Program-made: the position numbers and the translations under genes
Part shown: positions 14,039 to 56,347 of the stretch, piece by piece
How positions within the stretch are numbered: the first letter of the stretch is position 1
How the letters are laid out: each line of letters begins with the position of its first letter
The notes under the pieces: model-generated
The model's database searches: none
Told to the model about the DNA's origin: nothing
What the model saw: only the letters and a program-made list of their open reading frames with translations
Virus record (IMG/VR): IMGVR_UViG_3300028601_000022
Location: 64,001 to 128,000 of that record
DNA: 64,000 nucleotides
Source of the DNA: a virus
Taxonomy: Duplodnaviria > Caudoviricetes
Strand: one strand, 5' to 3'

Positions 14039-15359
14039 AGGGAATAAGGATGTCACCTGCCACAACATCGACTGTGTTTTCAGCACCACATACCTTGATG
14101 CCGCCTTTCTTTGCAGCTGGGGCGTCCAGATGTGCCTCCATCCATTTCGGTAGTTCCTTGTCTGGGTTAGGCGTTTCTGTAGAAAGTTCGCCATTCATAA
14201 CACCCTGAACGAGGTCTGCCGTAACCGCAGCCATTTCTTTTTGTTTTGTTTTGTCTAAAGGAATGCGACACCGGAACTTGATAGGGTCAGAGCCATGATA
14301 CAGCACCCGACCAAGTTCCCGCATGATAGCTCGGTCTTCTGGGTTTTCGGAAGCCTGCAAGAAATTGAAGTAGGATACTTCCCAAGGGTGAGAAACACAG
14401 CGGCAAGCATTCACTGCCATTGTATCTATGATTTGGTTGCCCTCATCTGTTACGAGGTATTCAGCACCCATCTTCCGCCAGTAACGGTCAGTCTTAATGA
14501 GGTGCATTACATCACCGATGGTGTGAGGCATAAACACAAACACCTCATCCGGGAATGTATGAAAACGAACCTTCAAAGGAAGTTCAATGTCTTCCAGAGT
14601 AGTGAAAGACACATCACTGAGGTGAAACTCGGCAAGGCCTGGTCTGCCGCAGGACTTGCATACGTACGGGTAGCGGAAAAGGGAGTCACCGAGGGACTGC
14701 AAATGCCGGGTATCACCAATAAAGGTGAAGTCCGAGAAGGTAAGCTCTAGCGGGCTCATGCCGAGGGTGTATATTCCCTCAAGCATAATTTCGTACTTCT
14801 GGTACAGCGAAACGTCCGGATTGTTGATGGCCTCAATGTCGGCTACGCTGTAGGGGGAGTAAGAAATAAGGTAGTCCTCAGGGTACACAACCCCGCCTGA
14901 CGGAACAGCCGGTATATGTATAGCCCTGCGCTGCCTTCGATTGCGATAGTATTCCCGCTCTATAGCTAGTGAGGCCTTGGTAAAGCGTGCCTGGTCGAGA
15001 AGTTCCTTCTTCTCTAGCCTCGTTGCGTTGAGGTCATCAAAGGCTGCCTGCAAAAAGGCCGGCACATTAGACGGTACGCCAGTAGGGGCAACCGGTGCAT
15101 CTACCACTCGGGTACCGGCCAGTGCTGGGTCATCAGTCAACACGAGGGGCTCACCGGAGTTGATTGCGTCAACCATCCAGTCTTCCAGGGGCTTCATGTT
15201 AGCCGGGTCGTCAGGCTTAGGGAGGACGGCAGATTTTGGCGGTTCTTTCTTTTGGTTAAGAATGTCGTCCTCCCGACCGGTCTGTATCGTAAGAACCTTT
15301 TCGGGTTTATGTGGTTTGGGAGGCTCTTTGAATTGACGGTTTACACGCTCACTGCTCAT
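13995..15359 (-). CDS. putative tail/baseplate assembly chaperone (T4 gp26-like)
   Basis: PSGG..YP, LT..DF..I, CxxC, P.TIGD and terminal C...CG pattern of large-myovirus chaperones. Confidence 0.55.
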   Translation of the reverse strand: MSSERVNRQFKEPPKPHKPEKVLTIQTGREDDILNQKKEPPKSAVLPKPDDPANMKPLEDWMVDAINSGEPLVLTDDPALAGTRVVDAPVAPTGVPSNVPAFLQAAFDDLNATRLEKKELLDQARFTKASLAIEREYYRNRRQRRAIHIPAVPSGGVVYPEDYLISYSPYSVADIEAINNPDVSLYQKYEIMLEGIYTLGMSPLELTFSDFTFIGDTRHLQSLGDSLFRYPYVCKSCGRPGLAEFHLSDVSFTTLEDIELPLKVRFHTFPDEVFVFMPHTIGDVMHLIKTDRYWRKMGAEYLVTDEGNQIIDTMAVNACRCVSHPWEVSYFNFLQASENPEDRAIMRELGRVLYHGSDPIKFRCRIPLDKTKQKEMAAVTADLVQGVMNGELSTETPNPDKELPKWMEAHLDAPAAKKGGIKVCGAENTVDVVAGDILIPFRRTPVNLEYGILP

Positions 15360-15367
15360 TGTTGCTC

Positions 15368-15895
15368 CTAAAGGTCTTCCTTGCGAACGTAGCCACGCGC
15401 TAGTGTAACCAGGTCGCTCATGGAAGAAGTAGCGGTGCTAAGGTTAAGGGACGCTTCCTCGTCCTTGCCAAGAGGCTCGAACTCTTGATGCACCCCAGTG
15501 AGGCAGTCTGCATTCTTTCCGTACAGACCCTTGCTGTCACGGGCAGCGCACACGTCCAACGGTGTGGAGATGTATATGAGGCGGAATTTATCCTCACCAA
15601 TAATACTTTGTGCTGCCTGCCGCATAGACTTCATTGGCGTAATCATGGACACAACGCACGATATGCCCTGGTCATTGCACAACTTGCAGATACCAGCAAC
15701 CCGTCGGACGTTTTCAAGCCGGTCTTCCAGGGAAAATCCCAGGTCAGAACAGATGCTTTGGCGGATAACATCACCGTCAAGGTGAAGGTAAGGCATCCGC
15801 ATTTTAGTGATAATTTCCTTGGCAAAAGTGGTCTTTCCGGCTCCTGACAAACCGAATATCCAGACCGTCCGCACCTTACTCGCGTTTACGCACAT
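15368..15895 (-). CDS. cysC: adenylyl-sulfate (APS) kinase
   Basis: WIFGLSGAGKTT, LDGD, DLGFSLEDRLENVRR, RDSKGLY, LTGV..EFEP. Confidence 0.93.
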   Translation of the reverse strand: MCVNASKVRTVWIFGLSGAGKTTFAKEIITKMRMPYLHLDGDVIRQSICSDLGFSLEDRLENVRRVAGICKLCNDQGISCVVSMITPMKSMRQAAQSIIGEDKFRLIYISTPLDVCAARDSKGLYGKNADCLTGVHQEFEPLGKDEEASLNLSTATSSMSDLVTLARGYVRKEDL

Positions 15896-16425: not shown

Positions 16426-17331
16426 CTACGCCTTTAGCTCAAGGAAGGCTACAACGTCTTCCCTCAGCGTGTTATCCGAATCTATGTAGCCGCAGCACTT
16501 CTTTGTGCAGGGCCCCTGGCGAAGGCAGGTATTGTTCTGCTTGTGACGGTCACCCATGTGCAGCCAGGTTTCATCATCCAAGGTGTAATACAGGTTGGTA
16601 GAATGCTGGCTAACACTCAACAGCGTATTGAGGTCAATGTCGCCTGAGCTATCGGCCTTTTCAAGAAGCCGAAAGAAGTCCGCCCGCTTAGGGAAGAATC
16701 CGGGAAGGTTATCTTCCATGTCGGCCTTGTCTTTGAACTTAATGAAAGGAACATACGGTGTGTTGAAGTCCACCCTACAGCCCCATTTTTCCTCGAACCC
16801 CTTCACTGTGAACTCACCCTTGAGGTAAGAATCAATGAATGCCTGGGTCATAATGATTTCCACATGCAGGGGTATTTCAGGATACAGGTCATGAAGGATC
16901 TTGACGTTCTCCTCCCAATGCTTCCGCGTTACCGGATTGAATCGGTATGCCGTATCCCAAGAGGTGCAGAGGAGGAATCTGTTAGCTACACCGAAGAACC
17001 GCAGCAACCCGCAGGCATGAAGCAGCCTGGTTTCATCGCCGTACATAAGGGACGTGCAAATAAGACCACGCTCGGTATGGCCGTACTTTATTCGGTATGC
17101 AATGGATACCAGAAGGTCTTCAAAGGCCCACTGAATCTTCCGTGATTCAAGTTGGCCGTCAAAGAACTCGCCGCCAATGAGGGAGATAGAGTCGCAGTTA
17201 CCTACTTCCTCTATCTTCTCCTTAGCAAAGCGCAATGATTCCAACTTATCCCTGACGTGTGGTATATCACGGTTACAGCAGAATGGGCAGTTGTGCCTGC
17301 AGTCCTTCCACAGTTCAAATTGAAGAAACAT
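16426..17331 (-). CDS. radical SAM enzyme (paralog A)
   Basis: QFELW..CRHNCPFC, IGGEF, TSWD..YRF, PGFFPKR, Cys-rich C-terminus. Confidence 0.85.
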   Translation of the reverse strand: MFLQFELWKDCRHNCPFCCNRDIPHVRDKLESLRFAKEKIEEVGNCDSISLIGGEFFDGQLESRKIQWAFEDLLVSIAYRIKYGHTERGLICTSLMYGDETRLLHACGLLRFFGVANRFLLCTSWDTAYRFNPVTRKHWEENVKILHDLYPEIPLHVEIIMTQAFIDSYLKGEFTVKGFEEKWGCRVDFNTPYVPFIKFKDKADMEDNLPGFFPKRADFFRLLEKADSSGDIDLNTLLSVSQHSTNLYYTLDDETWLHMGDRHKQNNTCLRQGPCTKKCCGYIDSDNTLREDVVAFLELKA

Positions 17332-17339
17332 GAGGCCTC

Positions 17340-18239
17340 CTAAAAGAAGTCTTCCTCCTCAAGGAGGAGATAGGGGAACTTGCCCATATCACCAATGACC
17401 AGGGTATCCACGCCGCCCACATTGTGGACATGCTGCGTAAGATAGTGGTTATTGATGTATCGGCCAATAGCAGACAGGAAACGCGCATAGTCTGCATGAT
17501 ATTTCATCTCGGCACAGAACATTCCCCGAACCATGTCAGGGTCGGAAGAACCTGCGCAGTCACAACCAATAGACAGGGCAAAGTTGCCGCGGGTGGCTTG
17601 ACGGTAGTTGTACAGGTCACCCTGCTTGTGGGTGACGGTAAACAGGTCAATTTCGCTGACCTGTGTTACGCACTTTACCGAGCCGTCCGTGTTTGTTCCG
17701 TAGGAGAACAAGTCCATGTAGAATCCGGGCTTGATGCACACAGGGTTGTCCGAGTTGCGGATGCTGGACAGCACCAGGCGAAAGTCAAGGTCAGTGTGGA
17801 CTTCAAACACCTCGAATATGTCACCGCTTTCCGTGGTCACAATGAGCAGGTCGTCAAACTGACCGCCGAATACCTTGCTACGGATTCCTATAAAGAGGAG
17901 CTTGGTAAGCCCTTGGCCTGGCTGCTGCGGATTAACATCCTTTACTGCCCTGGCCTTAGCAGGAAGCAGCCCCTTACTGTCGATGGTATCCAGCATTTCC
18001 CTGATGATAATGGTGTTTTCTTCCACATTGGGAATAGCATCGGCATCGAAATTGTGGTCGTTGAAGACCTGCTGGACTACGGCAAGAACAGGCTTGTTCA
18101 TCACAATCTTATAGAGGAAGTCCAGGGGAATTTCCCCGGATATAGTATTCTTGGAAAGAGAGCTTTCAACGGCAAAAAGGTTACTGTAGCCTTTAGCCGC
18201 AATAGCAGCCTTTATCTGGTCAAGGGTAGGTACTTTCAT
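17340..18239 (-). CDS. hypothetical protein inside the radical SAM cluster
   Basis: 299 aa; IGIRS..FDD..PGFY weakly recalls phage YkuD-like proteins, but catalytic residues are not evident. Confidence 0.55.
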   Translation of the reverse strand: MKVPTLDQIKAAIAAKGYSNLFAVESSLSKNTISGEIPLDFLYKIVMNKPVLAVVQQVFNDHNFDADAIPNVEENTIIIREMLDTIDSKGLLPAKARAVKDVNPQQPGQGLTKLLFIGIRSKVFGGQFDDLLIVTTESGDIFEVFEVHTDLDFRLVLSSIRNSDNPVCIKPGFYMDLFSYGTNTDGSVKCVTQVSEIDLFTVTHKQGDLYNYRQATRGNFALSIGCDCAGSSDPDMVRGMFCAEMKYHADYARFLSAIGRYINNHYLTQHVHNVGGVDTLVIGDMGKFPYLLLEEEDFF

Positions 18240-18259: not shown

Positions 18260-19186
18260 TTAGGACATAAGGAGCTTGTCACAAAGCATGCAGGCTTCGG
18301 AATCAATGTAACCGGCATACGGGAAAGGGTGGCCACAAGGGAGAAAAGTTTCTGAGGCTATTTCGTAGCGCGTGTCTTTTTCCCTGTATTCAGGAACATC
18401 CGTGCCGGAGCGAAGTAGCGTATCCGCACGGAAGTGGATGTTGCATATTTTGTCAAAGACGTAGCATTCTTCCTCGGTGGACACCTTTGCAAGAAACTTG
18501 AGGAAGTCCTTGCGCTTTACAAAAAAGCCAGGCACCCGACGCTCCATTTCATTCTTGTCCTTGTACAGGCCCTTGATAAGGTGAGGCGGTTTGAAGAACA
18601 GCTGGGTATTGTAGGTATCCATGAAGTCATGGAAGTGAAGTTCACTGTTCAGGTAGCGTTCGATAGCATGCTGCGTGAGGATGATTGTGGTGTTGCAGCG
18701 GATGTTGGGATAGTTGGTCTTTATGTTGACCATGTTCTGCTTCCACGTCTCTTCCGACTTAGGCTTGTGAAAACGCCCGATGGTGTCGTAAGAGGTGATA
18801 ATCCAGAATCCTCCTGTCTTGGACACGGGGACAACGTCCTTAAACATGTCCAGCACTTCACACAGAACGGCACTTTCTTCCGTAAGGGCAGCACTCAACC
18901 AAGCACCCTCAAGCTTGCCAGCAAGAATGAGGTCTTTTGTAAGCTGGAGCAGGCGGAAGAACTGGTCGCGTATTTCAGGCGTATTGAGTTGCCCCTGCAT
19001 GAACTCGCCGCCAATGAAGGCCACGTTGGTGTAATCCTTCATATCACCGGCGAGGAGAAAAGCTTCGGCTCTGTCCATTTCGCGCTTTTTGTCTGCGTCT
19101 TCCGTTTTCCGAATGCGCTTGTTAAGGTAGCAGAACTTGCACCCTACGTTACACTCCGGCCACAACTCAAACTGAATAGCTTTCAT
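18260..19186 (-). CDS. radical SAM enzyme (paralog B)
   Basis: QFELW..CNVGCKFC, IGGEF, TSYD..GRF, CGH...YIDS..CMLCD. Confidence 0.87.
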   Translation of the reverse strand: MKAIQFELWPECNVGCKFCYLNKRIRKTEDADKKREMDRAEAFLLAGDMKDYTNVAFIGGEFMQGQLNTPEIRDQFFRLLQLTKDLILAGKLEGAWLSAALTEESAVLCEVLDMFKDVVPVSKTGGFWIITSYDTIGRFHKPKSEETWKQNMVNIKTNYPNIRCNTTIILTQHAIERYLNSELHFHDFMDTYNTQLFFKPPHLIKGLYKDKNEMERRVPGFFVKRKDFLKFLAKVSTEEECYVFDKICNIHFRADTLLRSGTDVPEYREKDTRYEIASETFLPCGHPFPYAGYIDSEACMLCDKLLMS

Positions 19187-19194
19187 ATAGGCTC

Positions 19195-20697
19195 CTACAG
19201 GGAGGTATCGGTAACGTCAATGTAAAAGAACCGACCACCCTGAACAAAGATAAGATGAATAGGAGTACCAGCAACGAACCTGCAAGCCTCGTCCAGCGTT
19301 TCGCATATGGGCTCTCCTCTACCATTCAGGCTTGTGTTAAGCAAGATAGGCAGATTGTAGTTCTCCATAAAGTGGTACAGTGTGGCATTCTCAGGAACGT
19401 CAAACAGAACCTGAGGTCTGGATGTTCCGTCTTGTGCCACTATAGACGGGTACTTGCGCTGATACCACGGTCGCACGTCCTCAGTAGCAAGCATGTAACG
19501 ATGCAGGTTATGGGGTTCATCCACTGCAAAGACCTTCGGGAAGAAGGTATCAAGAATGACAGGAGCAAACGGACGCCAGGACTCGCGTTCCTTGAGGCCA
19601 TTAACGTATTGTGCCATCCACGGGAAAGACGGATTGGCAAGAAGGCTTCTATGGCCCAGTGCGCGTGGGCCGTATTCACTGCCTCCCTCAAACCAAGCAA
19701 CCACATCACCGTGATTCAGCCATTCTGCAATGATTGGAGCTTCAATTTCTACATACTCATGGTTAGTTGGGAGGCTATACTTGCGGGAGTTGTAAGTAAG
19801 CGTACCGTTGACCTCGAGACCCTCTTCAAGGTGCGCTCTGCCAAGCATAAGGCCGGCATCAGTGCAAAGGGGAGGAACATAGAAGTTCTTCCACATTCCA
19901 AGCCGTGCTATCTTGCCGTTAAGGGTGCAGTTAAGGCCACACCCGCCTGTGATTATGAGGTTCTTGCTGGGCAGCTGCTTCATAAACTGAAGGAGGCTAA
20001 AAACGCTCCTCTCAAAGATGTGCTGCGTGTAACCGGCAACCCGGGTATAGTCGAACGTAAGTGTATCCGTTTGGGGCAGACCGAACTTCCGTTGGAAGAT
20101 ATCCTGTAGACCTGCAACAGGTTCAACCGTACTGCTAAGGTTGCCAGTGTTAGGGCTTACTGTAATGATGCCTTCCTTGTCTGCCCGAAAGTCCTCGTTG
20201 CAGTAGGTAGCAAGACCCATAACCTTACCGGCATGGCAAGTGCCTTCAAATGGGCTATTAGCACTCAACCCGCAGTGCTTTGCGGCAATGGAGAACATGC
20301 GACCAAGGGAGTATTCAGCAGAATAGCGGCGAACGGTATCGAACTTGGTTCCATTCGCCGTAAAGATACCGATAGCGTATTCGTTGTTTTCGTCGCACCC
20401 GTCAATAACAAGGATTGAGGCATCTTCAAATCCAGATTGAATGAAGGCACTCACTGCATGATACAGGTGGTGATTGTCACCATCACCGCAGTCTTTTGCA
20501 GGAGTGCCATCACTATCGGAATGATACGGGGTAGTTGTTTCAAGGTCGAGCTTGGAGGCAATATCTGCGCACCAAGCCCGTGCCTTACCGTGGTCTTGCT
20601 TGTCTTTCTTCCTCGTCAATCGTTCCTCCTCTATCATTGCAAGGAGTACGCCAGAATCAACGAGGCAGGATGCCATGCTAGAGGAGTATATGTTCAC
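19195..20697 (-). CDS. carbamoyltransferase, NodU/CmcH/TobZ family
   Basis: EEERLTRKK, HHLYHA, AGKVMGLA, GGCGLN, EYGPRALGHRS, RPFAP, LLNTSLN.RGEPI; GTG start after GGAGG. Confidence 0.92.
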   Translation of the reverse strand: MNIYSSSMASCLVDSGVLLAMIEEERLTRKKDKQDHGKARAWCADIASKLDLETTTPYHSDSDGTPAKDCGDGDNHHLYHAVSAFIQSGFEDASILVIDGCDENNEYAIGIFTANGTKFDTVRRYSAEYSLGRMFSIAAKHCGLSANSPFEGTCHAGKVMGLATYCNEDFRADKEGIITVSPNTGNLSSTVEPVAGLQDIFQRKFGLPQTDTLTFDYTRVAGYTQHIFERSVFSLLQFMKQLPSKNLIITGGCGLNCTLNGKIARLGMWKNFYVPPLCTDAGLMLGRAHLEEGLEVNGTLTYNSRKYSLPTNHEYVEIEAPIIAEWLNHGDVVAWFEGGSEYGPRALGHRSLLANPSFPWMAQYVNGLKERESWRPFAPVILDTFFPKVFAVDEPHNLHRYMLATEDVRPWYQRKYPSIVAQDGTSRPQVLFDVPENATLYHFMENYNLPILLNTSLNGRGEPICETLDEACRFVAGTPIHLIFVQGGRFFYIDVTDTSL

Positions 20698-20699
20698 GA

Positions 20700-21635
20700 T
20701 TATTTTCCTCCGAAGCTTGTCATGCAAAGAATGTCGCACAGCATGCACTTAGGGCTGTCAGAGTAGCACCTGTACAGTTCCGAGTGCCCGCAGTCCATAA
20801 GGACTTCCTTACCGTCCGCAAGAACAGGCTTCTGGTCATTTGTGCCGTAGCGATTGTGAAGGCCACCGTACTTGTAGATGCCAGAGTGATAAGAGGAAGA
20901 AACCGTGTCCATGTATATCTTATGGTGAGTCTTCTCCAGATAGAGGAGGAAGTTGAGGAAGTCCCTGCGCTTGAAGAAAAAGTCGGTAAGCTGCTTTCCT
21001 GTATGAACCGGGTGAGGGTACAAGAATACCAGGGAGCAGCCGGGTATTTCTTCATCCAGGAAACGCTGAATGCTGAATTTGCCGCTGAATACCTGGTCAA
21101 TGACGTGCTGTGTAAGAATCATTTGCACACCCACGCCGTAGTTGTAACGGTCACGGAAGGCCAGGATATTCTTCAGCGCAAGCAAGCGCATTTCTTCCGT
21201 CTTGTACCTGTATTTCAGGTCGTAGGAGAAGTTCACGTCAAGGACTTTGGAGGTACATTCCTCAACGATGCGGTCGCAAACACGATAGAGAAACGAGGGC
21301 TCATACATGCCATTGGTGACAGTAGAGTAGCGGCAGCGCGGGTTCTTGGAAACCTTCAGCACCTTCTCTATGATGTCCTCTATGAGGAGCATGAACTCAT
21401 CCTCATAGATAGGGTTACGGTAGCCGTAAACCTCACCGCCCAGCAAAGATATACCGTGGGAGAACTTGCCAGCCCAGTCAACGTAGTTGAGGTTATCGCG
21501 TATGTTCCGCACGTGGGTGATTATTTGCTGCAAGGACCGGTCTTGCCGGTCCAAGCGCAAACAGAAGTCGCAATTGCCAGTGCAGTTGGGAAGGACACCA
21601 TACTGCACACAGTATCCGTCAGGGCCAGAACTCAT
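20700..21635 (-). CDS. radical SAM enzyme (paralog C)
   Basis: CTGNCDFC, LGGEV, VTNG, SYDLKYRY, CGH...YSDS..CMLCD. Confidence 0.87.
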   Translation of the reverse strand: MSSGPDGYCVQYGVLPNCTGNCDFCLRLDRQDRSLQQIITHVRNIRDNLNYVDWAGKFSHGISLLGGEVYGYRNPIYEDEFMLLIEDIIEKVLKVSKNPRCRYSTVTNGMYEPSFLYRVCDRIVEECTSKVLDVNFSYDLKYRYKTEEMRLLALKNILAFRDRYNYGVGVQMILTQHVIDQVFSGKFSIQRFLDEEIPGCSLVFLYPHPVHTGKQLTDFFFKRRDFLNFLLYLEKTHHKIYMDTVSSSYHSGIYKYGGLHNRYGTNDQKPVLADGKEVLMDCGHSELYRCYSDSPKCMLCDILCMTSFGGK

Positions 21636-22588
21636 AGCCGGGCTCCCCCTTCAGTATCCAGCATTTTGAGGATGTCGCATGCGTAGCATTCATCCGAATC
21701 GGCATAACTGCGGCAGTACACAAAGTGGCCGCAAGGAGCAAGCAGGTCAAGGTCGTGGCTAGTGTGGTTCTTTACATCACGCCACACCGTCATGTCCTGG
21801 ATTGGTCGGTACACGTTCGTAGCACGCCGCCCTGACTGGTCTGCAAAGCGACGCCACAGGGGGAAGTTGTTCTTCATAAGAAAGAAGCAGAAAGCCACGA
21901 ACGAAGACCGCTTCGGAAGGAAGTCTGCCGGAAGCATAAGGCTGTGCCTGTCGCCAATTGTACCGATAAGGTCAAGCAAGCGACCAGGGAATACCTTGAG
22001 CATGCGCACGATTCGCTTGTCGCCGCCCATGTAGGCGTCGATAAGGAACTGCGACAGGATGGTGGTACAGTGGACTTTGCAGCCTGTACGCTTTACCTTG
22101 CCCAGGTTAATCCACCATTCGCGCTCGTTGGCTTTCGTGAAGCGGTACTTTATGTCATAGCTTGTGCCGACCATAACACGGTCAATGAAGCCTGCCGCTT
22201 TGAACTTTTCCAGAGTAAACTGGAGCAACGAGTCTTCATACTTGAATTTGAGGCTCGTGATGGGATACAGCTTTTTGAGCTTATCCTCCTTCATAAGGAG
22301 AATAAGCTCATCCAGGAGCCTTTCATAGGTAGGGAGCCATTCCTGGTCGTAACCATTCATAATCTCCCCACCCTGAAAGGACACCTCGTCAAACTGGTTC
22401 CAGTCGATAGTGGGCAGGTGGCCCAGAATCTGCTCCAGAATGTCTTTCTTTTCAGCGGGTGAGCGGAACCGCTCAGGGTCGCAGGTATTGTCGCCATTAG
22501 CCGTATAGGCTAGGGAGCAGAATGCGCACCTGTTCTCTCTGCATTCATTCCAGAACTCAAACTGGATGATTTCCTTGTCCTTTTTCAT
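21632..22588 (-). CDS. radical SAM enzyme (paralog D, CX4CX2C variant)
   Basis: QFEFW.ECRENRCAFC, QGGEI, TSYDIKYRF, CGH...YADS..CYACD. Confidence 0.8.
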   Translation of the reverse strand: MKKDKEIIQFEFWNECRENRCAFCSLAYTANGDNTCDPERFRSPAEKKDILEQILGHLPTIDWNQFDEVSFQGGEIMNGYDQEWLPTYERLLDELILLMKEDKLKKLYPITSLKFKYEDSLLQFTLEKFKAAGFIDRVMVGTSYDIKYRFTKANEREWWINLGKVKRTGCKVHCTTILSQFLIDAYMGGDKRIVRMLKVFPGRLLDLIGTIGDRHSLMLPADFLPKRSSFVAFCFFLMKNNFPLWRRFADQSGRRATNVYRPIQDMTVWRDVKNHTSHDLDLLAPCGHFVYCRSYADSDECYACDILKMLDTEGGARL

Positions 22589-22600
22589 ATTCCCCTCGGT

Positions 22601-23281
22601 CTATGCTACAAGATTATACCAGGCGATGTAGGAGCAGGAGCTTGAAGAACTGGAAGAGCAGGAACTGGAAGAACTCGAGGAGCACGAGGAGCTGGACGAG
22701 CTGGACGAGCAAGACGAGCAAGTAACTGCCATCGCGCCCCAACTGACAGAGCAGGGGGCGGCTTTGTATGCGTCGATGCCGTCCTTCAAAGCAGCCAACA
22801 TGCCGGTAATGTCAGAAGCCTTGATGGGCTCAAGTTCCGACGGCTCCGTGATTGCAGGAAGGGGATTGTTCACAAAGCAGCGCGAAGTGAGGCCATTCGT
22901 GGGGTTTGTAACCACCACAAAGCGCACCGAAGTGTAGGTGGCCAGGCATGTAAGGAAGTGAATCAGACCCTTCAGAGTGATAAGGTTGTCCATCTTGGAC
23001 GCAAACCCGTTTTCATTGATGAAGGTGTTCCATGCCGCAGTGAATGCCGCTGTGGTAACGATGGGTGGGCGGCCAGAGAAGTTAATGTCCAACCTGGCAG
23101 CGGCAGCCTTCAACTGGCCAGTAACCGTAACGGTACGGCCAGTGAAGCTGGGGTCTGTGATATTGCCTTTGTAAACGTCAAGGTTGTCGATAGAGGTCTT
23201 GAGGGTTTCAAAAGCCTCATTAACAACCTGTCCAAACGTAATAACTGCACCGGGTAAAATAGCCATAAGCTCAATCTCCAT
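22601..23281 (-). CDS. protein with C-terminal Cys/poly-Ser repeat; candidate substrate of the radical SAM cluster (alternative start 23266)
   Basis: Ends CSSC-S8-C-S7-C-S7-CSYIAWYNLVA; immediately upstream of the enzymes. Confidence 0.7.
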   Translation of the reverse strand: MEIELMAILPGAVITFGQVVNEAFETLKTSIDNLDVYKGNITDPSFTGRTVTVTGQLKAAAARLDINFSGRPPIVTTAAFTAAWNTFINENGFASKMDNLITLKGLIHFLTCLATYTSVRFVVVTNPTNGLTSRCFVNNPLPAITEPSELEPIKASDITGMLAALKDGIDAYKAAPCSVSWGAMAVTCSSCSSSSSSSSCSSSSSSSCSSSSSSSCSYIAWYNLVA

Positions 23282-23346: not shown

Positions 23347-23868
23347 TTACAGCTTTTCGAGAAAGGCGCCGACCAGGGCATGGTTGCCGAGAATACGCGA
23401 AAGCACAGAGAAGCCTTCCTTGACCTTGTACAGGTTCGTCATGTCGATGCGGGACATATCGACCTTGCCCATGAGCGAGGACATGAGGGGCGCCGTGCCG
23501 AGAAGGAAGATGCCGTAGAACATGGTTGGAATGGAGACCTTGGAATCATCCTGCTCAATGGTGAGGGGAATGTCGCAGGAAGTAAGGATGGAAAGGTACC
23601 ACTTGACCAGTTCCAAGATAAATTCATGGAGTTCGGTCTGCAGGGCCGACTTCACGTCAATGAATTCGGAAATTTCATTGAAGTAACAGTTTTCCTGCTT
23701 GAAGAAATCCTCGTCAAAGACGTTGTAGGAGTTCACCAAGCGGTACACGTTGAGAATGTCCACTTCGTTGCAGTCATTGCCTTCGGCAAGATAGCCGTTG
23801 GTAAGGAGCTTGCGGAAAACCTCAATCTTCTGTTCCAAGGGAAGTGCTTTGATTTCCTGGGGTGTCAT
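23347..23868 (-). CDS. hypothetical helical protein, first gene of the cluster
   Basis: 173 aa, AGGAG RBS, strong C-ending codon preference. Confidence 0.7.
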   Translation of the reverse strand: MTPQEIKALPLEQKIEVFRKLLTNGYLAEGNDCNEVDILNVYRLVNSYNVFDEDFFKQENCYFNEISEFIDVKSALQTELHEFILELVKWYLSILTSCDIPLTIEQDDSKVSIPTMFYGIFLLGTAPLMSSLMGKVDMSRIDMTNLYKVKEGFSVLSRILGNHALVGAFLEKL

Positions 23869-43617: not shown

Positions 43618-44565
43618 ATGAATACAGCAACCGAAACTCTTCCTCCGATTTACGAGTTCCTTCTCTGGAACAACTGCAACAACAACTGCAAGTTCTGCCA
43701 CCAGAAGGCTCGCAAGGCACGCTTCCCTGGCAAGTTCTTGGATGCCAAACAGCAGGCGCATTCCATTCAGTTGGTACGCGACTTCCTTACAACGGGACAC
43801 CTCGTTGGTCAGGAAAGTATGCCGGCTGAAAAGAAGTTTAACATGCTTCTTATGGGCGGTGAGTTGTTTGATAACCGCCTTACGCCTGCGAATGAAAAAG
43901 CCTTCTTTGACCTTGCAGACGTTATTCTCGTCCAGATGTTGGAAGGCCGCATTGACCACCTTTACGTCAACACCAACCTGCTTTATGATATGAACATCAT
44001 GCTGTTGGACTTTCTGTACCGCTTTACACGTGCTGGGTTGAGCAGTCGTATCCGCTTTACTACCTCGTGTGACGTGGCTTACCGCTTTGCGAATCACGGC
44101 GCACTTGCCTTCATGACCAGCAATCTGAAGAAACTGCGCGTTACCTACCCTGAAATTCCGATGGTTGCAAACTGTATTCTTACTGATGCTGCGGTGCAGT
44201 TCCTGCTGAACAACCCCATGTATCCTTCCGTGTTTGAGGAACGTTACGGGGCGAGGCTCAACCTTATCCCATACATCACCCTCAAAAACAGCATGGCACC
44301 GGAAAGGGCTGACGTTCATAAGGTTCTCCTTCTCCTCAATGAACTCAACCCAGGCTATTTGAAGGCATACGTTGACGGCATCGACATGCCACAGAAGAAA
44401 TTCCTGTATGAATATGACAGTGGTAGCTATCATTCCGCTACTTCCGCTGATGCAGCCTGCGGCCACGGTGTGAACTTCGGCCATTGCTACAAGTCTACCG
44501 ACGATAAAAAGTCGGGCGCCTGCTTCATTTGTGATTGCAAAGCCCTTCTCGATTCCGTATCCTAG
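43618..44565 (+). CDS. radical SAM enzyme (paralog E)
   Basis: YEFLLWNNCNNNCKFC, MGGEL, TSCD..YRF, ILT, CGH...CFICD. Confidence 0.85.
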   Translation: MNTATETLPPIYEFLLWNNCNNNCKFCHQKARKARFPGKFLDAKQQAHSIQLVRDFLTTGHLVGQESMPAEKKFNMLLMGGELFDNRLTPANEKAFFDLADVILVQMLEGRIDHLYVNTNLLYDMNIMLLDFLYRFTRAGLSSRIRFTTSCDVAYRFANHGALAFMTSNLKKLRVTYPEIPMVANCILTDAAVQFLLNNPMYPSVFEERYGARLNLIPYITLKNSMAPERADVHKVLLLLNELNPGYLKAYVDGIDMPQKKFLYEYDSGSYHSATSADAACGHGVNFGHCYKSTDDKKSGACFICDCKALLDSVS

Positions 44566-44573
44566 GAGGATGT

Positions 44574-45422
44574 ATGTTCAACCCTAACGATAACACTCAT
44601 CCTGTTGACCAGCGGGCAAAACCCCTCATTGGCATTGTGATAAACAACCAAGACCCGTTGCAGTTACGCCGGGTTCAGGTGAAGATTGAGGGCCTGCTCG
44701 AGGGCGTAGATACAAAGACCGCACCTTGGTTTCGCCCGGAAGCTTCTGGCCTTGGTAGCCGTTCTGACTACGGCACTTTCGATGAAGTACCCGAGGTAAA
44801 CTCCCCGGTACAAGTTACGCTCACTGGCGGTGACCTTCGTAGCGGCACCTACAAAGCCTGCCATGATACCTCGGTTGATAGCTCTATGATTCGCCTCTTT
44901 GGCGAAGATTACCCGGCCACCAGCGGTAAATGCGATGCAAAAGGAACATTTACGCGCAAGAACAAAAAGCGCGGATATACCGAGAAGATGCACCAGTCAG
45001 GCTTTTATACTCAGGTAGACAAAGCCGGCAACTTGCACGTTTACATTCCCGGTAATATCTTCGTTCACGTCAAGGGCGGTATTGCAATGCAGGTCGACAA
45101 GGATTTCCTCATGAAATGCCTGGGCATGCTTGGCCTAAGCAGCGACGGTGATGCTGGCATAAGTGCTGGCGGAAACCTGGAAGCTCTTGCCGGACAGGAT
45201 ATTTCTATTGATTCTGAATCCAGTGGCCGCATTGATACTGGTCTTGGCGTGCGCTTTGGCGTGAAGGATAAGACCAACTCTGGCACAAGTAGTGCCGCTT
45301 CTACCGTAGATGCTCGCCAGGCTGAGGTTAAGGAGTTGCAGGATGCTGTTCTCCTTTCTGGCGAAGTTGCCAAGGACTCGATTGAAGTTCACTCCAACTC
45401 CCTTTTGGGCACCCGTAGCTAG
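44574..45422 (+). CDS. baseplate central spike (gp5/VgrG OB-fold)
   Basis: GIVINNQDP..LRRVQVKI, PEVNS.V.V, HQSG, beta-helix repeats; AGGAGG RBS. Confidence 0.8.
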   Translation: MFNPNDNTHPVDQRAKPLIGIVINNQDPLQLRRVQVKIEGLLEGVDTKTAPWFRPEASGLGSRSDYGTFDEVPEVNSPVQVTLTGGDLRSGTYKACHDTSVDSSMIRLFGEDYPATSGKCDAKGTFTRKNKKRGYTEKMHQSGFYTQVDKAGNLHVYIPGNIFVHVKGGIAMQVDKDFLMKCLGMLGLSSDGDAGISAGGNLEALAGQDISIDSESSGRIDTGLGVRFGVKDKTNSGTSSAASTVDARQAEVKELQDAVLLSGEVAKDSIEVHSNSLLGTRS

Positions 45423-45836: not shown

Positions 45837-47042
45837 ATGCACATCGTCCTCCTTCCCATTGAGCCGTTGGAAGAGCGGTACAGCAAGCAGTGGCTTGACT
45901 GGACGCTGGAATATTTCAACTCGGATGAGCCCTACGCTCATTATACACCGAAGGACCTCACCTACGATGTTCTTCTGCCCGAATCCTACGAATCAATCAA
46001 AAACGGCCAATTCCTGGACTGCATTCAGACTAACGCCTTTAAGGCAAAGCAGTTGCAGATGGCTATTGACTGGATATCCAAACAGGATGAGCGCGTTTTG
46101 CGCAGTCCGCAGACTGTTTTCCTCCTGCATGACGGGTGGTTTCCAGGCATTGAAATGCTGGCATATATCCGCAGTGCTATGCGGTACAACTTCCGCATTG
46201 CTGCCTGCCTTCATGCTGGCACCTGGGATACCCATGACTTCACATTCCGTTCTGGCATGAGTGTTTGGGCGCGCGGTATAGAAGCGTCTTGGATGGCTAT
46301 TTACGACCACATCTTTGTTGCAACCGAGTTTCACAAGAGCCTTATGCAGCAAAGCGGCGTTTTTGCCAATCCCCTTGCGGCCCCTATCTCGGTTACGGGG
46401 TTTCCCATATTTTCTCCCCCTAAGTTGGAACTTGCATTTCCGCAGGCTGTGAAAAAAGACTTGGTAGTCTTCCCCCACCGTGTTGCCCCTGAAAAGCGAA
46501 ATGCTTTGTTTGAAATTCTTGCAGAACGAGCCGCTAAGGTGCCCGAGCTTCGGCATTTTTCATTCGTGCAAACGAAGGAAGTCTGCACTTCGGACAACCC
46601 GAAGATTGCAAAGGAGCAGTATTACGACTTGCTTCGGTCTGCCCGGTATGCTGTGTCGTTTGCAACGCAGGAAACCTGGGGTATCGCAATGCAGGAAAGC
46701 GTCATGTGCGGCTGCATTCCTATTGTCCCTGACAGGCTTTCTTACCGGGAAATGTACCCTCCCTGCTTCCGCATACCTGATTCCCTCACATTGGACGCTG
46801 AAGTAGAGCAAATGCTTATTCGGATGGTCAAGCTTGAAGGCCTTCGTGAATATGCAGAAGAAAAGCGTGCTAACCTCAGCGGCATCTTTCAGGTAAAGGG
46901 GTTTTCTGCCCTTATAAATATGATTGATGACCTGGAGTCGAACAATTCGTTTTCACGGGCACACTCGGCTTATGCCAAAGAGGTAGCCAAGCTGGATAAC
47001 CCTGGCTCTATTCTCGACCAAGAGTTCAAAAAGCTTCTGTAA
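45837..47042 (+). CDS. GT-B glycosyltransferase
   Basis: HAG..D..DF, FPHRVAPEK, QETWGI...E, PDRLSY.EMY. Confidence 0.8.
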   Translation: MHIVLLPIEPLEERYSKQWLDWTLEYFNSDEPYAHYTPKDLTYDVLLPESYESIKNGQFLDCIQTNAFKAKQLQMAIDWISKQDERVLRSPQTVFLLHDGWFPGIEMLAYIRSAMRYNFRIAACLHAGTWDTHDFTFRSGMSVWARGIEASWMAIYDHIFVATEFHKSLMQQSGVFANPLAAPISVTGFPIFSPPKLELAFPQAVKKDLVVFPHRVAPEKRNALFEILAERAAKVPELRHFSFVQTKEVCTSDNPKIAKEQYYDLLRSARYAVSFATQETWGIAMQESVMCGCIPIVPDRLSYREMYPPCFRIPDSLTLDAEVEQMLIRMVKLEGLREYAEEKRANLSGIFQVKGFSALINMIDDLESNNSFSRAHSAYAKEVAKLDNPGSILDQEFKKLL

Positions 47043-47844: not shown

Positions 47845-48876
47845 ATGAATCCTGTAAAAGTTGCCCAATTGATTATGGAGAAACTGCTTCTTGACCCTGA
47901 AAGCGAGGTTGTTCTCCCCGTTGTTGCAGTGGCTCATACCTCTGACACGCTTAAGGTGGTGCAGGAGCTGGTTAAGCTGGAAGTGGCAGACAAGTTTCTG
48001 TCCGGGTACTCTTCGGACTTGGATGTCCCATCAGGTTACAGCGACCGCTGTCACGACTTTACGTCCTTGTGTGTCACCGATGAACCATCTTCTATCGACT
48101 ACATTAAAAGGTTATTCAACCCTAACTATGTTATTACCGTGAATGGCGACGACTCTATTCACGTCATTCACGCCAGGGCGTCTTTCCCTCATTGCACCGT
48201 CCCCTCTCATACGCTTCGAAAGAAGTTTCTATACCTTCCTGAAAGGAAGCTCGTTTACTGTGTAATGAACAAGTGCGGCAGCACCTACATCGGCAGGGGG
48301 TTGACTGGCCTTGATACGGACGATGCCATTCAGGCCCGTTCGTCCTCCCTTTATCACATGCAGGACATATTCTCGCGCACCAATGACCTGTACAAGTTCA
48401 CCGTGGTGCGCAACCCCTACTCCCGCTTTGTGTCCACCTACCTTGACATTATTGCAGGGCCCGAAGGTGTACCGTCTCCGCGAAACATTTACTACCGTAG
48501 GGCCTTGAAGCTCCCGGTTGACCGCCGTATCGAGTTCACTGAACTGATTGACGCGGTTGAAAAGCAGGGCTTTATCTGGGGGCCGGGCCACGAGCATTGG
48601 CTGCCTCAAACGACCATCGCCTGCATAGGCATCATCAAGTATGACGATGTTGGTCGCCTTGAAGACCTCAACAACTTCCTTGAAACCAAGGTTGTTCCTG
48701 TGCTGCGCGCCAACGGTGATACCAGGCAGAACATATTCAGTGGTGAACACTGCCGAAAGTCTGGCGCCTCGGATAGCTGGACACAATTCTACACGGACGA
48801 CGGTATCCGAAACCGCGTGTACAGCCTGTACGAAATTGACTTTGACGTTCTCCGCTACTCGAAATGGATTATCTAG
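47845..48876 (+). CDS. PAPS-dependent sulfotransferase (Sulfotransfer_2-like) with extra N-terminal domain
   Basis: 5'-PSB NKCGST, 3'-PB VRNPYSRFVSTY, HWLPQ, GRLEDL, Y..DF..L.Y. Confidence 0.85.
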   Translation: MNPVKVAQLIMEKLLLDPESEVVLPVVAVAHTSDTLKVVQELVKLEVADKFLSGYSSDLDVPSGYSDRCHDFTSLCVTDEPSSIDYIKRLFNPNYVITVNGDDSIHVIHARASFPHCTVPSHTLRKKFLYLPERKLVYCVMNKCGSTYIGRGLTGLDTDDAIQARSSSLYHMQDIFSRTNDLYKFTVVRNPYSRFVSTYLDIIAGPEGVPSPRNIYYRRALKLPVDRRIEFTELIDAVEKQGFIWGPGHEHWLPQTTIACIGIIKYDDVGRLEDLNNFLETKVVPVLRANGDTRQNIFSGEHCRKSGASDSWTQFYTDDGIRNRVYSLYEIDFDVLRYSKWII

Positions 48877-54808: not shown

Positions 54809-56347
54809 ATGGCTAAGGAAAAGGTTCGTAAATCACGGGGTTTTGACCTCGAGGACGTTCCCCCGATTACTGAGGGTCGCCGCTTTGATTCTGAAATTGA
54901 AACTTTTGGTTTCTCCGAAAGTTCACACGCGCAAATACGCCTTATTGGCAAGGTCTTTCAGGTCAAAATACACTGGGTGCCCACAATCAAGAAGGACGGC
55001 TCACGTTCGCAGTTCCCGAAGCTGTGTTTGCACAACGACGACGGCAACGAAGAATGCCCTTATTGCAAAATGGGCTTGAGCACCAATACGCGCTACATGC
55101 AGAACGCCATCATTCGCGACCTCGAAGAAGCGCGGCCCAAGAAGGCCAAGTACAGCAAGAAGGCCGAGTTCAAGAAGCCCGGCGACGACAATTGGACTCC
55201 GGTGCGCGTTGTTTCGTTCCCGGCCTCGGTCATGCAGAAAATCCTCAACTTCAAATCGCTGTCCAAGGTCAAGACCAAGGACGGCATCAAGACGTTCCAC
55301 GTGTCCGATGAAAAGTACGGGCGCGACCTTAACGTGAAGCTTGACCCCAACGGGTCTGGCTCCGGCATGTATGATGTGCAGCGCGAAGCAATCTCGCGGC
55401 TGGAGGGCGAAGAACTCGAATACCTGATGTATGACATAGACTCTATCTATGACTGCGTGGAATCCGAGGAAGAAGCCCTTGCCATCATCCGCTCTTGCTA
55501 CGACCGCGGCACGCTTGAAGGCGCCAAGTCCAAAGACGGCAAGGCCCTTGTCAATATGCAGGCCGTCCAGGACCTCCTCGGCATCAAAAGCAAGAAAAAA
55601 CGCCGTGACGAGGATGAGGATGAGGATGACGAGGACGATGATGTTCCTCGCTCCTCGAAGAAATCCAAGTCCAAGAAATCCTCGAAGAAACGCCGCTACG
55701 AGGATGAGGACGAGGACGACGACCTCGAAGACGATGACCTCGAGGATGACGAGGATGAGGACGAGGAAGAAGACGAAGCCCCGCGCGGCAAGAAGGGCAA
55801 GAAGTCCAAGTCCAAGTCCAAGAAATCCTCGAAAAAACGCCGTGACGGGGATGAGGATGACGAGGACGAGGACGATGATGAAGACAGACGTTCTTCCAAG
55901 AAGTCCAAGAAATCCTCAAAAAAGCGGCGTGACGAAGACGAGGATGAGGACGAGGACGACGACCTCGAAGAGGATGAGGATGATGAAGACGAGGACGAAG
56001 CTCCTCGTGGCAAGAAGTCATCCAAGTCCAAGAAATCCTCGAAAAAACGCCGTGACGAGGACGATGACCTCGAGGATGACGAGGATGACGACCTCGAAGA
56101 CGATGACCTCGAGGATGAGGACGACGACGAGGAGGATGAGGACGAGGAAGACGAGCGTACTTCCAAGAAGTCCAAGAAGTCATCCAAGTCCAAGAAATCC
56201 TCGAAGAAACGCCGTGACGAGGATGAGGATGACGAGGACGAGGACGATGATGACCTCGACCTGGATGATGAAGACGAAGACGACGAGGACGAGGATGAAC
56301 GTCCTTCCAAGAAGTCCAAGTCTAAGAAGTCCTCGAAGAAACGCTAA
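54809..56347 (+). CDS. single-stranded DNA-binding protein (gp32-like) with very long charge-blocked tail
   Basis: HW...C...CPYC, N.I.R, D.KYGRD.NV; precedes RecA; D/E and K/S block tail. Confidence 0.65.
   Translation: MAKEKVRKSRGFDLEDVPPITEGRRFDSEIETFGFSESSHAQIRLIGKVFQVKIHWVPTIKKDGSRSQFPKLCLHNDDGNEECPYCKMGLSTNTRYMQNAIIRDLEEARPKKAKYSKKAEFKKPGDDNWTPVRVVSFPASVMQKILNFKSLSKVKTKDGIKTFHVSDEKYGRDLNVKLDPNGSGSGMYDVQREAISRLEGEELEYLMYDIDSIYDCVESEEEALAIIRSCYDRGTLEGAKSKDGKALVNMQAVQDLLGIKSKKKRRDEDEDEDDEDDDVPRSSKKSKSKKSSKKRRYEDEDEDDDLEDDDLEDDEDEDEEEDEAPRGKKGKKSKSKSKKSSKKRRDGDEDDEDEDDDEDRRSSKKSKKSSKKRRDEDEDEDEDDDLEEDEDDEDEDEAPRGKKSSKSKKSSKKRRDEDDDLEDDEDDDLEDDDLEDEDDDEEDEDEEDERTSKKSKKSSKSKKSSKKRRDEDEDDEDEDDDDLDLDDEDEDDEDEDERPSKKSKSKKSSKKR
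55585..56344 (+). repeat. degenerate repeats encoding alternating SKKSKSKKSSKKRR and poly-D/E blocks
   Basis: TCCAAGAAATCCTCGAA(A/G)AAACGCCG and GAGGATGAGGACGAC units recur about 5-6 times. Confidence 0.85.

Follow-up and report, generated by a model that had tools for sequence, protein, structure and literature searches.

Within a 64,000-nucleotide stretch of a phage genome (the window; positions 64,001 to 128,000 of IMG/VR virus record IMGVR_UViG_3300028601_000022, Duplodnaviria, Caudoviricetes) we analysed a gene whose product ends in a tract of serine and cysteine only, followed by a short hydrophobic and aromatic cap. The gene of this tailed protein lies among paralogues of radical S-adenosylmethionine (radical-SAM) enzymes, and we consider it on balance probable that the tailed protein serves as substrate to a post-translational modification cassette that the phage encodes and that is composed of these paralogues, members of a compact and unnamed clade, and a small helical protein. 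This interpretation accounts best for the combination of a strict Ser/Cys rule, a cap that co-varies within genomes, the gene linkage, the kinship of the enzymes to peptide maturases and the variable set of tailoring genes. The sequence features, their conservation, the protein-level selection and the strict gene linkage are direct observations.

The Ser/Cys tract and its C-terminal cap

The 30 minus-strand codons at 22631-22720 encode CSSCSSSSSSSSCSSSSSSSCSSSSSSSCS, that is 25 Ser and 5 Cys in the pattern C-S2-C-S8-C-S7-C-S7-C-S, and run directly into the residues YIAWYNLVA and a stop codon. Serine is written with all six codons (TCC 9, TCG 5, TCT 4, AGC 3, AGT 3, TCA 1) and cysteine with TGC only. 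Re-reading of the minus strand thereby reproduced exactly the residue counts, the spacing, the aromatic end and the codon variety reported in an initial annotation made from the sequence by itself. Given the composition of the open reading frames (ORFs) of this genome (Ser 6.9%, Cys 1.7%), approximately 4e-28 such runs would be expected, which excludes a chance origin. The same annotation had argued against a slippage microsatellite; the tract is indeed not a simple microsatellite and uses six serine codons, but Tandem Repeats Finder detected a weak 24-nt (8-codon) repeat (2.2 copies, 86% match, 22632-22684), so that the period of about eight residues between cysteines looks like the remnant of a local unit duplication. 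No long ORF is present on the opposite strand at the tract, and strand and frame are fixed by the conservation of the N-terminal domain among homologues.

The tract forms the C-terminus of ORF 22601-23281 (226 aa). As the homologues begin at Met6, the gene probably spans 22601-23266 and encodes 221 aa. A word-based search returned 49 homologues with lengths of 200-257 aa, every one of them unnamed and from metagenomes, and a profile search with the N-terminal domain returned 474 clusters at 50% identity, 354 of them with E<=1e-10, whereas nothing matching the tailed protein was found in Pfam, PHROGs or NCBIfam. Fold prediction, proposed in the initial annotation as a check, yielded an AlphaFold2 (AF2) model with a predicted local distance difference test score (pLDDT) of 68, in which an alpha/beta domain is followed by a disordered tail, and provided no convincing structural neighbour: searches of the PDB and BFVD with Foldseek, of VIA wide and, by structure, of the ESM Atlas gave a best Z of 4.6 and a TM score below 0.3, and an Atlas search by features returned unnamed viral clusters only. 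The nearest named Atlas cluster, the modification-target family 'tSAM_targ_Cxxx_rpt', was rejected, its score of 0.81 being at chance level.

Across 56 tails of the family, the 1268 tract residues comprise 1065 Ser, 200 Cys, two Thr and one Asn, such that 1265 (99.8%) are Ser or Cys. The tracts span 9-35 residues and contain zero to seven Cys, the first mostly within tract positions 1-3, with gaps of 1-13 between successive Cys and no favoured value; a few tails have a single Cys or none. The spacing of about eight residues is thus real in the window tract and not a feature of the family, and it is not conserved among homologues, an outcome named beforehand as refuting the idea of a selected repetitive core. 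The cap proved to be conserved, in most cases as exactly eight residues that end the protein with the motif x-[FY]-I-[AG]-[YFW]-[M/F/I]-x-[IL]-COOH. Of 130 further representatives, 74 carry tract and cap; the remainder are fragments, tail-less paralogues ending after the last strand of the N-terminal domain, or proteins with other C-termini, and in three representatives the N-terminal domain is fused to the Pfam domain Gly_rich_2. No conserved cleavage motif precedes the tract. The 187-aa N-terminal part is an independently folding domain that occurs also without a tail or fused to Gly_rich_2; of the leader or carrier domain of roughly 190 aa proposed in the initial annotation, the leader reading is thus not supported.

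Between the window tract and that of its 58%-identical orthologue on contig L041, nucleotide identity is 0.55. Sixteen codons differ synonymously, six of them by a switch between TCN and AGY, and eight changes exchange Ser and Cys, with no other residue introduced. Paralogue pairs within one genome show the same behaviour: although identity between their N-terminal domains is no more than 27-39%, most differences between their tracts are synonymous, and their caps are kept through synonymous changes (e.g., Arg-Leu as AGG TTG in one and CGT CTT in the other). Divergent N-terminal domains together with synonymous differences argue that recent gene conversion is not the explanation. From these codon comparisons and the near-exclusive use of Ser and Cys across the family we conclude that the tract is under selection at the protein level, in agreement with the initial annotation. 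In four pairs, cap identity is 0.78 between paralogues of one genome compared to 0.41 across genomes, which fits a recognition element co-evolving with a partner encoded in the same genome and lends support to the recognition role suggested earlier for the aromatic cap.

A linked cassette of radical-SAM enzymes

We examined 30 contigs encoding the tailed protein (22.7 kb to 287 kb; several closely related). All 30 carry at least three genes of the radical-SAM family and one gene for the helical protein within 10 kb of the tailed protein, so that candidates for the modifying enzymes whose absence would have spoken against a modified core adjoin the tail in every case. Linkage was also evident in the reverse direction, as two homologues of the radical-SAM enzyme of orthogroup B (radical-SAM-B), selected solely on the extent of their contig, are each preceded directly upstream by the genes of the helical and the tailed protein. 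The number of radical-SAM genes per cassette ranges from three to eight.

In the window, the cassette comes after the head-tail connector gene and reads, in minus-strand order, helical protein, tailed protein, radical-SAM E and B, carbamoyltransferase, radical-SAM A, a 299-aa orphan and radical-SAM D (Table 1). The listed GTG start of the carbamoyltransferase overlaps the preceding gene, and the true start may therefore lie further in. For the 173-aa helical protein an Atlas search gave no usable match, and a complex prediction with the tailed protein scored 0.01, a value that speaks neither for nor against an interaction. The orphan was considered as a NifS-like component and rejected, as it has no profile match and no homologue in other cassettes. 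A scan of the cassette for promoters and terminators found sites no more frequently than in shuffled sequence, and in scans with family libraries none of the window's cassette genes was assigned to a protease or transporter family.

Table 1. Features of the tailed protein and its cassette in the window
Feature	Position	Strand	Basis or remark
173-aa helical partner protein	23347..23868	-	found in every cassette examined
N-terminal alpha/beta carrier domain, likely start Met6 at 23266	22721..23281	-	without family or fold match
Ser/Cys-only tract, candidate modified core	22631..22720	-	translation, family-wide Ser/Cys purity, codon test
C-terminal hydrophobic/aromatic cap YIAWYNLVA	22604..22630	-	translation, family motif; stop 22601-22603
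Radical-SAM orthogroup E, CX4CX2C variant	21632..22588	-	start 12 nt past the stop of the tail gene
Radical-SAM orthogroup B	20700..21635	-	most conserved group; 8/8 tree contigs
NodU/CmcH-type O-carbamoyltransferase, accessory	19195..20748	-	8/30 cassettes
Radical-SAM orthogroup A	18260..19186	-	8/8 tree contigs
299-aa orphan protein inside cassette	17340..18239	-	no homologue in other cassettes
Radical-SAM orthogroup D	16426..17331	-	5/8 tree contigs
Radical-SAM orthogroup C	43618..44565	+	20 kb off; in other phages part of the cassette

Maximum-likelihood analysis of 35 radical-SAM sequences, taken from eight contigs, gave a tree with five supported orthogroups, of which A and B are present in all eight contigs, C in six, D in five and E in three. 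Old, separately conserved orthogroups combined with drifting Cys positions point to enzymes that carry out different steps rather than serve different sites. The paralogues bear a CX3CX2C motif within the first ~26 residues (CX4CX2C in paralogue E), share the motifs GGE and S[YW]D..R, and, for the core paralogues, have the C-terminal pattern CGH-x(5-6)-Y-x-[CY]-x-DS-x2-C-x2-CD with three to four conserved Cys. Pfam returned sub-threshold matches to Radical_SAM and Fer4_12 only, and no anSME model in NCBIfam or Pfam matched the paralogues. When the profile of the whole family was compared with the PDB, YydG/EpeE was the only significant match (E=1.7e-6), restricted to the radical-SAM core; profiles of single orthogroups barely reach YydG and are uninformative. 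The AF2 model of radical-SAM-B (pLDDT 89) matched anSMEcpe best, with a Z of 14.0 over 267 aligned residues covering nearly the whole model including its C-terminal part, yet SuiB, SkfB, ChlB, CteB, GDGT-MAS and viperin are tied with it within about one Z unit, as is MoaA. Radical-SAM-B itself makes up at least 719 clusters when grouped at 90% identity; none of them has a name, and they occur on contigs of up to 277 kb.

Other cassette genes are optional. The O-carbamoyltransferase occurs in eight of the 30 cassettes, and a lysine-less NifS/IscS-like protein, with a weak PDB match to 1ecx (E=0.011), in about 16; these proteins carry TAHS where IscS has its lysine motif. No NifS-like gene is present in the genome fragment to which the window belongs. 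The cassette of contig L018 contains a MiaB/RimO-like methylthiotransferase and a 339-aa radical-SAM enzyme that by eye ends in a SPASM-type CX2CX5CX3C motif (L018:12034-14359), and these genes suggest methylthiolation as an alternative tailoring step. A BCCT transporter in L009 is the sole transporter met in other cassettes. An adenosine 5'-phosphosulfate (APS) kinase (15368-15895) lies ~0.5 kb beyond radical-SAM D; together with the sulfotransferase and the glycosyltransferase family 47 (GT47)-like gene found further along the window it was considered as a conserved cassette part, and all three were set aside for lack of counterparts in the other cassette neighbourhoods. Some jumbo-phage contigs (L026/L029 and L024) have two pairs of a tailed protein and a tail-less paralogue a few kb apart, indicating that parts of the cassette were duplicated. 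On L041 a 648-aa DUF7487 protein (L041:2328-4274), absent from this position in the window, is encoded between the connector and helical-protein genes and probably represents a mobile element; L007 and L008 likewise have DUF7487 genes flanking their cassettes.

Proposed modification and competing explanations

In order to rationalise these features, we propose that the cap, and possibly the carrier domain as well, docks the tailed protein to the enzymes, which would then work along the entire tract irrespective of position by abstracting a hydrogen from the alpha- or beta-carbon of Ser or Cys. The interchange of Ser and Cys and the exclusion of Thr, Ala and Gly favour a chemistry that needs a beta-heteroatom and maybe yields one product from both residues; anSME-like oxidation to formylglycine would be an example, with thioether or ether cross-links and epimerisation as alternatives. 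The separate orthogroups would perform separate steps, not separate sites, and the variable tailoring enzymes may add further groups: the O-carbamoyltransferase in the window's cassette, and elsewhere the lysine-less NifS-like proteins, the MiaB-like methylthiotransferase or the SPASM radical-SAM enzyme. The modified tail would finally be displayed on the particle or built into it. A bolder version, which we regard as quite unlikely, has the enzymes proceed processively along the whole tract, at every position alike, and turn it into one uniform, non-proteinogenic polymer on a tail-fibre-associated protein; such a polymer could be poly-formylglycine that forms an oxazole-like chain by cyclisation, a beta-helix of alternating D/L residues, or an ether/thioether ladder.

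Several points weigh against a modified tail. We infer the modification as such, its chemistry and its location on the virion, and gene linkage is no proof of a relation between enzyme and substrate. The carrier is probably a virion protein of the tail-fibre region, an assignment drawn from gene neighbourhood only, and the model of its N-terminal domain is of middling confidence. The core paralogues show by eye no canonical 7-Cys SPASM motif, and no recognisable recognition element for peptides that are ribosomally synthesised and modified after translation (RiPPs) is present in any radical-SAM paralogue. The tied matches to viperin and MoaA, both of which act on nucleotide substrates, mean that the structural neighbours leave the substrate class unfixed. 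Finally, the Cys-less tails imply that thioether chemistry cannot be universal.

Maturation of peptides by bacterial radical-SAM enzymes is well known, and several systems resemble parts of the cassette. By analogy, the closest functional precedent is the antiphage system HXS, for which radical-SAM maturation of a defence protein was shown in 2026: the bacterial radical-SAM enzymes HxsB and HxsC and the small HxsD mature the folded HxsA, which carries His-x-Ser repeats, by a single site-specific mass shift of +8 Da within an SHRSS motif, and N-terminal processing, export and a peptidoglycan-binding domain are part of the system (PMC13128918). Common to both are several radical-SAM paralogues with a small accessory protein, a folded target (putative in the phage) with Ser-containing repeats, and a setting in the conflict between phage and bacterium. 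However, HXS uses two radical-SAM enzymes, whereas the phage cassette has three to eight from another clade, and the phage tract is pure Ser/Cys of variable length with a C-terminal cap, with no His-x-Ser repeats and no signal peptide. The sequence of the tailed protein contains no His-x-Ser repeats and, according to Pfam, no peptidoglycan-binding domain, and there is no Hxs model among the NCBIfam matches of the cassette proteins at E<=0.05, a library that we take to contain such models.

The anSME/AtsB structures (PDB 4k36-4k39) provide the best structural match of radical-SAM-B, at an identity of only 13-15% and tied with SuiB, SkfB, ChlB, CteB and viperin. anSME converts either Cys or Ser of a protein to the same product, formylglycine, and such acceptance of both residues would explain their interchange in the tail. 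Its SPASM domain is complete and holds two auxiliary clusters, and it modifies one residue, within the sulfatase motif (C/S)xPxR; this motif, also in the form (C/S)-x-(P/A)-x-R, is absent from the tail, whose tract has no Pro or Arg. YydG (EpeE) of the Bacillus subtilis YydF/YydG system is a radical-SAM enzyme that modifies peptides and is likewise compact, with its cluster motif at the N-terminus; it acts alone and epimerises Val and Ile in a short secreted peptide. Maturases of sactipeptides and ranthipeptides (SkfB, CteB, PapB, SCIFF) act as radical-SAM enzymes on Cys-containing C-terminal cores, and SkfB and CteB are structural neighbours of radical-SAM-B, with PapB a weak NCBIfam match. 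These systems have defined Cys donors and acceptors, a RiPP-recognition element, SPASM or twitch clusters and released peptides, in contrast to phage tails with drifting Cys positions, some of them Cys-free. Linear azole and telomestatin-type poly-azole RiPPs, whose cores are typically Ser/Cys only, resemble the tail in composition. They require a YcaO cyclodehydratase and a flavin mononucleotide (FMN) dehydrogenase; YcaO (PF02624) is absent from the 142.8-kb record (~52% complete), with control genomes positive, and neither the Pfam scan of the window's cassette genes nor the precomputed Pfam lists of the other loci contain it. Judged by Cys donor positions, sulfatase motif, His-x-Ser repeats and YcaO, the cassette does not qualify as a sactipeptide, anSME, HXS or azole system, and we found no published description of the tailed protein or its cassette.

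Could the tail instead remain unmodified? As a flexible hydrophilic linker presenting the cap, or as a docking or organising element, it would leave the radical-SAM enzymes to act on DNA bases, nucleotides, glycans or lipids. We judge this unlikely, even though the predicted disorder of the tract suits a linker, the fold matches to viperin, MoaA and GDGT-MAS nearly equal those to peptide maturases in Z, and carbamoyltransferases and radical-SAM enzymes take part in phage DNA hypermodification (PMC8989533). A thymidylate-synthase-family hydroxymethylase (PF00303), however, was not found in the 142.8-kb record, about half of the genome, and the carbamoyltransferase is confined to a minority of cassettes. 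In addition, Gly, Thr, Pro, Ala and Asn are normally accepted in linkers, whereas here the Ser/Cys purity has been held despite heavy synonymous turnover, and the linkage extends to all 30 contigs and to both directions of search. In a true RiPP, the Ser/Cys core would be modified (poly-azole-like or cross-linked), cut off its carrier and released as a bioactive molecule at lysis. A precursor with several maturases and variable tailoring genes does resemble a biosynthetic gene cluster, and the core composition is that of the azole products, but the missing YcaO, the lack of any protease or exporter seen in the cassettes, a cap at the extreme C-terminus with no cleavage motif ahead of the tract, and a large, conserved carrier with tail-less and Gly-rich paralogues, encoded among structural genes, make release decidedly unlikely. 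Of the RiPP-like core put forward in the initial annotation, the layout and the adjoining candidate enzymes stand; the features of a classical RiPP, namely a leader protease or exporter and a carrier that is not itself a folded domain with paralogues, do not.

Two further possibilities take their cue from accessory genes. NifS/IscS-like proteins in about half of the cassettes and three to eight Fe-S enzymes encoded in each could point to a Cys-bearing tail that serves these enzymes as a sulfur or iron-sulfur relay or scaffold. To this we give very little credence, as Ser predominates and some tails are Cys-free, the NifS-like proteins have TAHS in place of the lysine motif and match the PDB only weakly, and the window's genome fragment has no such gene at all. 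Similarly, the GT47-like gene (45837-47042), the Sulfotransfer_2 gene (47845-48876) and the APS kinase would permit the poly-Ser tract to be an O-glycosylated and/or sulfated, mucin-like or proteoglycan-like tail. Yet none of the three has a homologue in other cassette neighbourhoods, and a glycan would leave the obligatory radical-SAM genes, the tolerance of Cys and the exclusion of Thr unexplained, so that we hold this explanation to be highly improbable.

If the tail is modified by the radical-SAM cassette, as we favour, it would represent new radical chemistry on Ser and Cys, a new way of decorating phage proteins, with possible effects on adsorption, stability or anti-defence, and a compact enzyme set for a simple, programmable substrate. 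The uniform polymer, if real, would add a new class to the biopolymers made by enzymes, displayed on virions, and would be the first case of a phage structural protein extensively hypermodified by radical-SAM enzymes. In the literature, we found neither a phage-encoded radical-SAM maturation system of this kind nor one that combines a Ser/Cys homopolymer as core with a C-terminal cap and three to eight dedicated radical-SAM paralogues. The phage origin, the homopolymeric core, the C-terminal cap and the many dedicated paralogues are unusual for radical-SAM maturation, and the family is abundant in large and jumbo phages (at least 474 carrier clusters and at least 719 radical-SAM-B clusters), with every gene unnamed.

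Genome setting and further features

The 142.8-kb record to which the window belongs has a CheckV completeness of 52% and encodes a large terminase, a head-tail connector and an endolysin. Near-identical DNA is present in landfill, activated-sludge and wastewater runs of several studies, and two relatives (one with 14 differences over 2.3 kb, one ~97% identical) span the tract without insertions or deletions. A partial deletion occurs on a short, unrelated contig. Neither the region nor the tailed protein nor radical-SAM-B was matched, as DNA or as protein, in 50,697 GenBank phage records, a set that may lack close relatives, and 185,579 species genomes gave one match, a 249-kb contig with a full cassette binned into a Bacilli metagenome-assembled genome. 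By these comparisons the system looks phage-restricted and has not been seen in cultured phage, within the sensitivity of the searches.

Several cassettes lie within or adjoin tail-fibre genes. That of L042 has Phage_fiber_2, DUF2793 and Mtd_N genes at its flanks, that of L017 adjoins a Peptidase_S74 tailspike, and one is located between T4-type gp23 and gp13. The fusion of N-terminal-domain paralogues to Gly_rich_2 and, in the window, the place of the cassette behind the head-tail connector gene also speak for a tail-fibre association of the carrier. A reverse transcriptase is encoded near the cassette of L008 (L008:588-1814), and the Mtd_N (major tropism determinant) gene near that of L042 is at L042:18557-19807; diversity-generating retroelements may act on the neighbouring tail-fibre genes. 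A 285-kb cassette-bearing phage contig encodes a homologue of ribosomal protein S21 (L001:3029-3229).

Within the window, radical-SAM C adjoins a gp5-like baseplate gene with an OB domain (44535-45422), past which follow the GT47/exostosin-like glycosyltransferase and then the Sulfotransfer_2 protein. With the APS kinase, the phage may be making 3'-phosphoadenosine-5'-phosphosulfate (PAPS) and sulfating a glycan or protein. Outside the window, at G000:C1:11478-15048, a QueD/PTPS-like protein (FDAAHRL by eye) is encoded ~2 kb upstream of a radical-SAM paralogue (14146-15048) that groups with orthogroup E on a long branch, and a separate small-molecule or base-modification pathway is possible at this locus. 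In a 512-aa protein at 54809-56347, a globular N-terminal half is followed by a C-terminal half in which acidic (D/E) and basic (SKKSKKSSKKRR) repeats alternate; read in its antisense frames, the gene gives long stretches of poly-Ser that could be mistaken for further Ser tails.

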